In this document: positions 42,914-43,965 of the stretch, piece by piece | How the letters are laid out: each line of letters begins with the position of its first letter | How positions within the stretch are numbered: position 1 is the first letter of the stretch | Assembly: GCF_003334765.1 (NCBI RefSeq) | Contig: NZ_QOWT01000014.1 | Length of the DNA: 64,000 bases | Direction: 5' to 3' (one strand) | DNA from: Escherichia coli | GTDB taxonomy: Bacteria > Pseudomonadota > Gammaproteobacteria > Enterobacterales > Enterobacteriaceae | The notes under the pieces: model-generated | The model's input: the letters and a program-made list of their open reading frames with translations, nothing else | The model's database searches: none | Told to the model about the DNA's origin: nothing | Made by a program: the position numbers and the translations under genes

Positions 42914-43873
42914 GTGGCACAACGAGATTATGTACGCCGCAGCCAACCGGCACCTTCGCGGCGAAAAAAGAGCACCTCACGGAAAAAGCAACGAAATCTG
43001 CCTGCGGTTTCTCCCGCTATGGTCGCTATTGCTGCCGCCGTTCTTGTGACCTTTATCGGTGGTCTGTACTTCATTACGCATCACAAGAAAGAAGAGTCCG
43101 AGACGCTGCAAAGCCAGAAAGTGACCGGAAACGGACTACCACCAAAACCAGAAGAACGCTGGCGCTACATTAAAGAGCTGGAAAGTCGCCAGCCGGGAGT
43201 GCGTGCGCCCACAGAACCTTCTGCCGGTGGTGAAGTGAAAACGCCGGAGCAACTGACACCAGAACAACGTCAGCTTCTTGAACAAATGCAGGCTGATATG
43301 CGCCAGCAGCCAACGCAGCTGGTTGAAGTTCCGTGGAATGAACAGACGCCGGAACAGCGTCAGCAAACGCTACAGCGCCAACGTCAGGCGCAGCAATTAG
43401 CGGAACAGCAACGCCTGGCTCAGCAGTCGCGTACGACTGAACAAAGCTGGCAGCAGCAGACGCGTACGTCGCAAGCCGCACCGGTACAGGCGCAACCGCG
43501 CCAGTCTAAACCGGCTTCTTCTCAGCAGCCGTACCAGGATCTGCTGCAAACTCCTGCGCACACGACTGCGCAGTCGAAGCCGCAGCAAGCTGCGCCAGTT
43601 GCTCGTGCCGCTGACGCGCCAAAACCGACGGCGGAGAAAAAAGACGAACGCCGCTGGATGGTGCAGTGCGGTTCGTTCAGAGGCGCGGAACAGGCAGAGA
43701 CGGTACGTGCTCAGCTGGCGTTCGAAGGCTTTGACTCGAAAATCACCACCAACAATGGCTGGAATCGTGTGGTCATTGGCCCGGTGAAAGGCAAAGAGAA
43801 CGCAGACAGCACCCTCAATCGGTTGAAGATGGCGGGTCATACAAACTGCATTCGGCTCGCCGCCGGGGGTTGA
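42914..43873 (+). CDS. ftsN: cell division protein FtsN
   Basis: 319 aa ORF with a single N-terminal TM segment, Gln/Pro-rich linker and C-terminal SPOR domain (RWMVQCGSFRGAEQAETVRAQLAFEGFDSKIT). Confidence 0.93.
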   Translation: MAQRDYVRRSQPAPSRRKKSTSRKKQRNLPAVSPAMVAIAAAVLVTFIGGLYFITHHKKEESETLQSQKVTGNGLPPKPEERWRYIKELESRQPGVRAPTEPSAGGEVKTPEQLTPEQRQLLEQMQADMRQQPTQLVEVPWNEQTPEQRQQTLQRQRQAQQLAEQQRLAQQSRTTEQSWQQQTRTSQAAPVQAQPRQSKPASSQQPYQDLLQTPAHTTAQSKPQQAAPVARAADAPKPTAEKKDERRWMVQCGSFRGAEQAETVRAQLAFEGFDSKITTNNGWNRVVIGPVKGKENADSTLNRLKMAGHTNCIRLAAGG

Positions 43874-43896
43874 AACCCTCAAAATCCCCCCCATCT
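43869..43896 (+). promoter_or_regulatory. sigma32 heat-shock promoter of hslVU
   Basis: TTGAAA (43870..43875) - 13 nt - CCCCATCT (43889..43896), a close match to the sigma32 consensus TTGAAA-N13-15-CCCCATnT; the -35 overlaps the ftsN stop codon. Confidence 0.8.
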
Positions 43897-43965
43897 ATAA
43901 TTGCATTATGCCCCGTACTTTTGTACGGGGTTTGTACTCTGTATTCGTAACCAAGGGGTCAGCTC

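Follow-up and report, generated by a model that had tools for sequence, protein, structure and literature searches.

The stretch of Escherichia coli DNA analysed here, 64,000 nucleotides in length and referred to below as the window, carries the gene order cytR-ftsN-hslVU-menA, and the features of interest lie around a spacer of 92 nt between ftsN and hslV. The segment from 43400 to 44500 matches several complete E. coli genomes at 100% identity, ftsN and hslV are annotated in this segment in 5426 of the 5426 E. coli genomes searched, and the 111-nt promoter-leader is found in all 5426 complete E. coli genomes, with an identity of at least 99% in 5291 of them. Published MG1655 data were placed on the window by the conversion NC_000913.3 position = 4166253 - window position, under which ftsN of MG1655 (4122380-4123339) agrees with ftsN of the window. 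A transcription unit end at 4120362 converts to window position 45891, the end of the hslU terminator U run, and Term-seq gives the identical coordinate; this agreement between Term-seq and SMRT-Cappable-seq validates the mapping. The features considered are listed by position, with the basis for each in brackets.

42914..43873, + strand: ftsN coding sequence, with its stop TGA at 43871-43873 (open reading frame list and RefSeq annotation of 100% identical E. coli genomes)
43870..43875, + strand: -35 element TTGAAA of the hslVU promoter, hslVp, containing the ftsN stop TGA (sequence)
43886..43892, + strand: seven consecutive C that extend from the end of the promoter spacer into the -10 (sequence)
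43889..43896, + strand: -10 element CCCCATCT of hslVp (sequence)
43905, + strand: hslVU transcription start site, an A (SMRT-Cappable-seq position 4122348; PMC6131387, Supplementary Data 1)
43906, - strand: Term-seq 3' end (PMC7815308, supplementary file 1, LB OD 2.0 sheet: 4122347 (+), mean count 1381)
43911..43930, + strand: leader stem-loop CCCCGTAC-TTTT-GTACGGGG (inverted-repeat search, folding and the structure line of Rfam RF02401)
43911..43968, + strand: match to the Rfam family RF02401 ClpQY_promoter, comprising the hairpin, the conserved leader, the Shine-Dalgarno AAGGGG (43953-43958) and the GTG start
43931..43945, + strand: moderately U-rich tail TTTGTACTCTGTATT, starting with TTTGT at 43931-43935 (sequence)
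43966..44496, + strand: hslV (clpQ) coding sequence with a GTG start (open reading frame list and RefSeq annotation)

The two elements of hslVp are separated by 13 nt and conform to the sigma-32 pattern (TTGAAA, 13-15 nt, CCCCATnT). An earlier reading of this DNA, made from the letters alone (the sequence-only reading), had proposed a sigma-32 promoter of hslVU whose -35 overlaps the ftsN TGA and whose -10 lies 13 nt downstream. Direct inspection of the sequence confirms both placements, with TGA at 43871-43873 falling inside TTGAAA at 43870-43875, and the identity of the promoter is upheld by the sequence together with its published RpoH dependence (PMC2681174). A search of both strands of the 64-kb window for TTGAAA-N12-15-CCCCAT returned this single match, compared with 0.07 expected from shuffled sequences. 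The hexamers of hslVp are the consensus of promoters of the dnaK P1/groE type (TTGAAA, 13 to 15 nt, CCCCATnT), its spacing belongs to the commonest class among the sigma-32 promoters of E. coli, its transcript starts 8 nt past the -10, and, as for other sigma-32 promoters, published work shows that it depends on rpoH and is induced by heat. Unlike dnaK P1 and groE, hslVp has its -35 embedded in the last codons and the stop of an essential gene, ftsN.

The promoter was first described in 1993 (reference 1 of PMC2681174), and its behaviour has been measured directly. Expression and mRNA of a clpQ::lacZ fusion rise at 42 C and collapse in rpoH, not in rpoS, mutants, and with a C-to-T change in the -10 (CCCCATCT to CCTCATCT) expression falls 1.7-fold and is no longer heat-inducible (PMC2681174); primer F3 of that study matches the window sequence. 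Heat-evolved BM28 strains carry a 2-bp deletion in the run of seven C (PMC10044804), and a 1-bp deletion in the same run, at -74/+19, became fixed in two rescue populations (PMC7750951). Two other promoter types were considered and rejected: an RpoS promoter, as rpoS was without effect in the experiments of Lien et al. (PMC2681174), and a functional sigma-70 promoter, as the promoter scan was negative and the spacing from TTGAAA to TATAAT is 20 bp. The TATAAT concerned, at 43896-43901, overlaps the -10 of hslVp.

The position of the transcription start decides whether the hairpin is part of the heat-shock message. The SMRT-Cappable-seq data of Yan et al. 2018 (PMC6131387) contain a unit on the reverse strand at 4120362..4122348 that covers b3932|b3931, and 4122348 is the first position of 143 reads from M9 and of 76 from rich medium. 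This start, window position 43905, lies 8 nt past the -10, the geometry expected for sigma-32, and 6 nt before the stem at 43911, which gives a leader of 61 nt in which five unpaired nucleotides (AUUAU, 43905-43909) precede the stem. The sequence-only reading had placed the hairpin inside the heat-shock transcript and had named an hslVU start downstream of 43931 as the observation that would count against it; the published start at 43905 is upstream of 43911-43930, and the hairpin is transcribed as proposed. The promoter elements, the RpoH dependence, the start site and the inclusion of the hairpin in the transcript are each established. A leader of 71 nt is quoted by Lien et al. (PMC2681174), which would put the start at 43895, within their own -10. 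The two values conflict, and the 61-nt leader from SMRT-Cappable-seq is the more coherent. No usable start-site or 3'-end entry was found in the Cappable-seq data (PMC4782308) or in Kim et al. 2012 (PMC3415461).

The arms of the stem-loop, CCCCGTAC (43911-43918) and GTACGGGG (43923-43930), are 8 nt each, 100% complementary and 4 nt apart, which leaves a UUUU loop, and an optional ninth pair can form between G43910 and U43931. With respect to the hairpin followed by TTTGT described in the sequence-only reading, both parts are present, and two details required correction: the loop is TTTT and not TTTTG, and the perfect stem ends at 43930 and not at 43931. The folded RNA has a predicted energy of -16.5 kcal/mol compared with -4.7 +/- 2.0 for shuffled sequences (z = -6.0; none of 200 shuffles was as stable), and the fold of the whole 61-nt leader has z = -3.4. 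The hairpin z of -6, taken with the single promoter match where 0.07 were expected, disfavours a chance origin. An RNA thermometer was rejected, as Lien et al. report no temperature-sensitive segment (PMC2681174) and the hairpin leaves the Shine-Dalgarno sequence free.

The match to RF02401 scores 63.6 bits against a gathering threshold of 42, covers model positions 1-57 of 57 with E = 7.9e-13 (1.5e-13 when a shorter stretch was scanned), and ends on the hslV GTG at 43966-43968, as the position of the family demands. The sole structured part of the family is an eight-pair hairpin. No other Rfam family reached threshold in the scan, the sub-threshold matches being noise, and a riboswitch or other known RNA family was rejected on that result. 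The source of RF02401 is Lien, Yu, Liou and Wu 2009 (Open Microbiol J 3:29; PMC2681174), whose primers GGGGGTTGAAA, CATCTATAATTGCATTATGCCC and TTTGTACTCTGTATTCGTAAC reproduce the window sequence exactly. The stem-loop of that study and the one described here are the same element, with identical primers, the same place before the hslV GTG and the same stabilising function, and nothing in the element differs from the family stem-loop. The element is thus already known, through the promoter work of 1993, the description of the stem-loop and its stabilising role in 2009 (PMC2681174) and the curated family. The present analysis goes beyond Lien et al. in the start at 43905 and in two features never mentioned in PMC2681174, the terminator-like tail and the overlap of the promoter with the ftsN stop.

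The function of the hairpin is addressed by the mutants of Lien et al. (PMC2681174). A 40-bp deletion in the leader reduces mRNA as well as reporter activity. In constructs with a heterologous promoter, deletion of the repeat (delta-IR) and replacement of its 3' arm by T (S-IR) both lower mRNA and impair ClpQ function; the reduction of ClpQ protein was demonstrated for delta-IR, whose mRNA also decays faster after rifampicin. When the arms are swapped (R-IR), so that the sequence is changed and the fold kept, mRNA level and ClpQ function are restored. The S-IR change creates a run of 15 U, which may itself be destabilising. These results bear out the first of two roles suggested in the sequence-only reading, that of a 5' stabiliser, and they also supply the comparison it had called for between reporters with and without the hairpin, as expression was already known to fall on deletion. 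The stability tests were made in pBAD33, where transcripts start at the vector promoter, and the hairpin stabilises in that setting without being 5'-terminal. According to Lien et al., recognisable RNase E and RNase III motifs are absent.

Conservation of the element was examined at 80 hslV loci from contigs representing one genome per species, mostly Enterobacterales with a few Vibrionaceae and Alteromonadales. The promoter, in the form TTGAA(A/T), 13-14 nt, CCCCA, is present at 78 of the 80, and in 67 of these 78 the TGA within the -35 closes an open frame of at least 250 codons, which indicates that a -35 overlapping the ftsN stop is an order-wide arrangement. Hairpins were located in the relatives by an anchored search. 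In most Enterobacterales a stable hairpin starts 12-16 nt past the -10, with a length ranging from 17 to 139 nt and a freely variable sequence. For the 39 distinct loci with short hairpins, an alignment has compensatory double changes at 8 of 8 pairs, and paired cells make up 92.9% of the total, compared with 35-57% after displacement of the 3' partners by 1-3 columns; the observed covariation was reached by none of 500 shuffles. The rescue by the arm swap and the covariation of the pairs together argue that fold rather than sequence is what matters. The falls in mRNA level and stability without the hairpin, the rescue and the covariation are direct results. The RF02401 model detects 8 of 20 diverse loci at threshold and leaves 12 below it; the element is therefore more widespread than the family implies, with hairpins of expanded size over a wider taxonomic range than the model detects. 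In a Klebsiella RNA-RNA interactome paper, hslVU is cited in passing only.

The sequence downstream of the stem raises a separate question. The stem of 8 bp has 5 G-C pairs and forms a GC-rich stem-loop of the kind seen in intrinsic terminators, and the tail that follows is UUUGUACU. A simple terminator scan of the window did not call the hairpin. The likely reason is that, once the G-U extension is counted, the following 8 bases contain only 4 T, and we do not take this as evidence against the presence of the hairpin. TransTermHP-style scoring gives the tail -4.06 from 43931 and -3.52 from 43932 (G-U pair counted), within the top 1-3% of window positions and comparable to the -3.63 obtained for the mapped terminator of hslU, also in this window. 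By tail score, therefore, the likeness to an ftsN terminator that was noted in the sequence-only reading is fairly described. The hairpin resembles intrinsic terminators in its GC-rich 8-9 bp stem, its tetraloop and the UUUGU that follows, and differs from them in having three consecutive U only, no mapped sense 3' end and documented read-through, and in that orthologues conserve the stem and not the U tract.

One explanation of these features is that the same hairpin serves, in addition to and not in place of stabilisation, as a leaky intrinsic terminator of ftsN or cytR-ftsN. As the -35 of hslVp overlaps the ftsN stop, any ftsN terminator must sit in the hslVU leader, and the hairpin is the only + strand terminator-like structure between the ftsN stop and hslV, with a tail that matches the score of the hslU terminator. 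SMRT-Cappable-seq contains a cytR-ftsN unit that ends before full coverage of hslV, given without coordinates in Supplementary Fig. 5, as well as a read-through ftsN-hslV-hslU unit (PMC6131387); together the two indicate that any termination at the hairpin is leaky. The curated Term-seq sites of Adams et al. 2021 (PMC7815308) include no sense-strand 3' end in the ftsN-hslV spacer in three conditions, which for 43931-43945 speaks only weakly against termination, ftsN being weakly expressed, and the termination tables of SMRT-Cappable-seq contain no coordinate that begins with 41223 (PMC6131387). Comparison of the relatives cuts both ways. Strong U tracts follow the hairpin in Tatumella (GTTTTTTTCTCT), some Pantoea (TTTTTTTCTACT), Pectobacterium (GTCTTTTTCTTC) and Hafnia, yet the U-rich tail is not conserved, only about 27 of 78 orthologue tails scoring -2.5 or better, and most orthologues have a weak tract or none. 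Photobacterium has a canonical terminator dedicated to ftsN, placed upstream of the sigma-32 promoter, and its hslV leader contains a small hairpin only, with no U tract; the terminator and leader functions can therefore lie apart, and Enterobacterales may have merged them. On balance we regard a terminator role for ftsN as a tentative proposal, with the odds somewhat against it. Our reading is that the conserved and selected function is that of the leader stem-loop itself.

The second role suggested in the sequence-only reading was that of a partial attenuator, in which the hairpin would prematurely stop a regulated fraction of hslVp transcripts and lower the output of the operon. Its appeal is anatomical, as a terminator-like structure begins 6 nt past the start site, a hairpin able to terminate ftsN transcripts should equally affect polymerases arriving from hslVp, and products of about 30 nt would escape size-selected libraries. 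The mutational data, however, run in the opposite direction: without an intact hairpin mRNA, protein and reporter activity all fall, and the arm swap restores mRNA and ClpQ function (PMC2681174). The leader consists of one helix, with no alternative or antiterminator fold, leader peptide or ligand-binding domain found in it; curated Term-seq lists no sense 3' end at the hairpin; 67 of the 143 full-length reads from the start reach the hslU terminator in M9 (PMC6131387); and the U tract is not conserved. Attenuation is very unlikely, and as a net effect it is already largely refuted.

A further explanation assigns the hairpin to the opposite strand, where it would form or protect the 3' end of an antisense RNA crossing the 5' region of hslV. 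The minus-strand Term-seq end at 43906, in LB at OD 2.0, falls 5 nt past the stem (PMC7815308), and on that strand the palindromic repeat forms an equally good hairpin, with -15 kcal/mol. The minus-strand tail CAUAAUGCAAUUAUA, however, is without a U tract and scores -1.88, about the window median, and a scan of 43000-45000 found no promoter-like site on either strand. Only one of the three conditions gave this end, at a modest count, and its position 1 nt from the sense start site means that it may be a library artefact. An antisense role would also explain neither the conserved spacing of the hairpin from the -10 nor the mutational data on the sense strand, and we consider it improbable.

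Very probably, then, the locus is an RpoH promoter of hslVU packed against the end of ftsN, followed by a leader stem-loop that raises mRNA by slowing its decay. The RpoH (sigma-32) promoter, with the ftsN stop codon inside its -35 hexamer, drives the hslVU (clpQY) protease operon; transcription begins at A43905, and the message carries five unpaired nucleotides ahead of a stable, GC-rich stem-loop of 8-9 bp (43911-43930). The stem-loop makes hslVU mRNA decay more slowly and so raises its steady-state level, an effect of the fold and not of the sequence. By analogy with the stem-loops of ompA and papA, we infer that the hairpin impedes RNase E in its 5'-end-dependent entry or scanning, and both the identity of the blocked nuclease and the ending of some ftsN transcription at the hairpin belong to this inferred part of the scheme.

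Five unpaired nucleotides at the 5' end are probably at or beyond the limit for classical protection by a 5'-terminal hairpin, as in ompA and RNA I. As the hairpin stabilises in pBAD33 without being 5'-terminal, it may act as an internal obstacle and not as an end cap; an internal roadblock may fit the five unpaired nucleotides and the pBAD data at least as well. The hslVU hairpin is like the ompA 5' UTR and papA, both cited by Lien et al. (PMC2681174), in that a hairpin near the 5' end prolongs the life of the mRNA in a structure-dependent manner. It is unlike them in that its stem is preceded by five unpaired nucleotides and in that it stabilises behind a vector-derived leader as well, and whereas the ompA leader has multiple domains, that of hslVU has a single short hairpin.

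A broader and more doubtful proposal is that compaction of the ftsN-hslV spacer in Enterobacterales has left one hairpin to act both as a leaky ftsN terminator, possibly also as a former of antisense 3' ends, and as the 5' stabiliser of a heat-shock mRNA. If this were true, the strength of the U tract would set a lineage-specific trade-off between insulation of ftsN and attenuation of hslVU, with a strong tract in Tatumella, Pantoea and Pectobacterium, a weak one in Escherichia, and separate hairpins in Vibrionaceae.

The main value of the analysis lies in the recovery of an experimentally validated regulatory element from raw sequence, and it matters little beyond that. Three modest additions can be made to what is known of the element. 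The published leader of 71 nt disagrees with single-molecule start data, which give 61 nt. The order-wide overlap of the -35 with the ftsN stop, with its consequence that any ftsN terminator is forced into the hslVU leader, is not discussed in PMC2681174. Finally, the hairpin persists, with large changes in size, well past the detection range of RF02401.

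The hslVU leader has been reported to be 71 nt long (Lien et al. 2009, PMC2681174), which places the start site at window position 43895, within the -10 element CCCCATCT of the sigma-32 promoter. The start mapped by SMRT-Cappable-seq in two media, 4122348 (PMC6131387), corresponds to window position 43905 and a leader of 61 nt. Two further features occupy this promoter.

Window 43886-43892: run of seven C residues in the promoter spacer and -10
Window 43896-43901: perfect TATAAT overlapping the end of the sigma-32 -10

The TATAAT is separated from the -35 TTGAAA by 20 bp and is therefore too distant for sigma-70. 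BM28 strains carry a 2-bp deletion in the seven-C run (PMC10044804) that would shorten this spacing from 20 to 18 bp, in agreement with the shift to sigma-70 control suggested in that study. The seven-C run is a repeatedly mutated site in heat-adaptation experiments. Two independent rescue populations, in which losing hslVU function is adaptive, both fixed a 1-bp deletion annotated as hslV/ftsN intergenic (-74/+19) (PMC7750951).

The sole curated Term-seq 3' end in the ftsN-hslV spacer lies on the minus strand at window position 43906, antisense to hslV (LB, OD 2.0; Adams et al. 2021, PMC7815308), a single nucleotide away from the sense start at 43905. It falls 5 nt beyond the palindromic leader hairpin (…CCCCGUACAAAAGUACGGGGCAUAA). 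This signal could represent the end of an antisense RNA protected by the hairpin, or a library artefact; a simple scan of both strands across 43000-45000 found no antisense promoter.

Among the hslV loci retrieved from related bacteria, several lineages have an expanded leader hairpin of 32-139 nt, which still begins 12-20 nt past the -10. In each of the following loci, the expanded hairpin occupies the leader just 5' of locus position 1501.

L018, L024, L025, L032, L035, L037, L041, L044: Yersiniaceae
L042, L046, L050, L052, L063, L067, L068: Photorhabdus and Xenorhabdus
L048, L029, L039: further loci

The majority of these score under the threshold of the Rfam family RF02401. In Pectobacterium zantedeschiae (L048), a conserved CCCCG…CGGGG base encloses ~130 nt that look like an insertion into the loop.

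A diverged spacer is also present on a contig labelled E. coli.

L002 (strain SCPM-O-B-8794), about 780-851: diverged ftsN-hslV spacer

Its HslV is 99% identical, yet the spacer has diverged: one U-A pair of the hairpin is replaced by C-G through compensatory change (GCCCCGCAC…GTGCGGGGC), and the tail differs as well. This pattern suggests that the contig comes from a divergent lineage of Escherichia and not from typical E. coli.

The Photobacterium loci show a separate arrangement.

L071, 1369-1407 and 1419-1446 (L074 and L077 likewise): ftsN terminator/hslVU promoter region

A canonical terminator, flanked by A and T runs, lies ~35 nt past the end of the ftsN homologue and is followed by the sigma-32 promoter CTTGAAA-N14-CCCCAGAT; thus, in contrast to Enterobacterales, ftsN termination is physically separate from the hslVU promoter-leader.

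At the downstream end of the operon, termination approaches the next gene.

Window 45869-45904: hslU terminator and menA start region

The terminator, GGGGCTGAAAGGCCCC followed by ATTTTTA, has published 3' ends that two independent data sets (Term-seq; SMRT-Cappable-seq) both place at window position 45891, just 13 nt 5' of the menA ATG (45904); the TTG start at 45892 in the ORF list is therefore probably too early. Read-through transcripts spanning hslV-hslU-menA-rraA were also reported by SMRT-Cappable-seq (PMC6131387).
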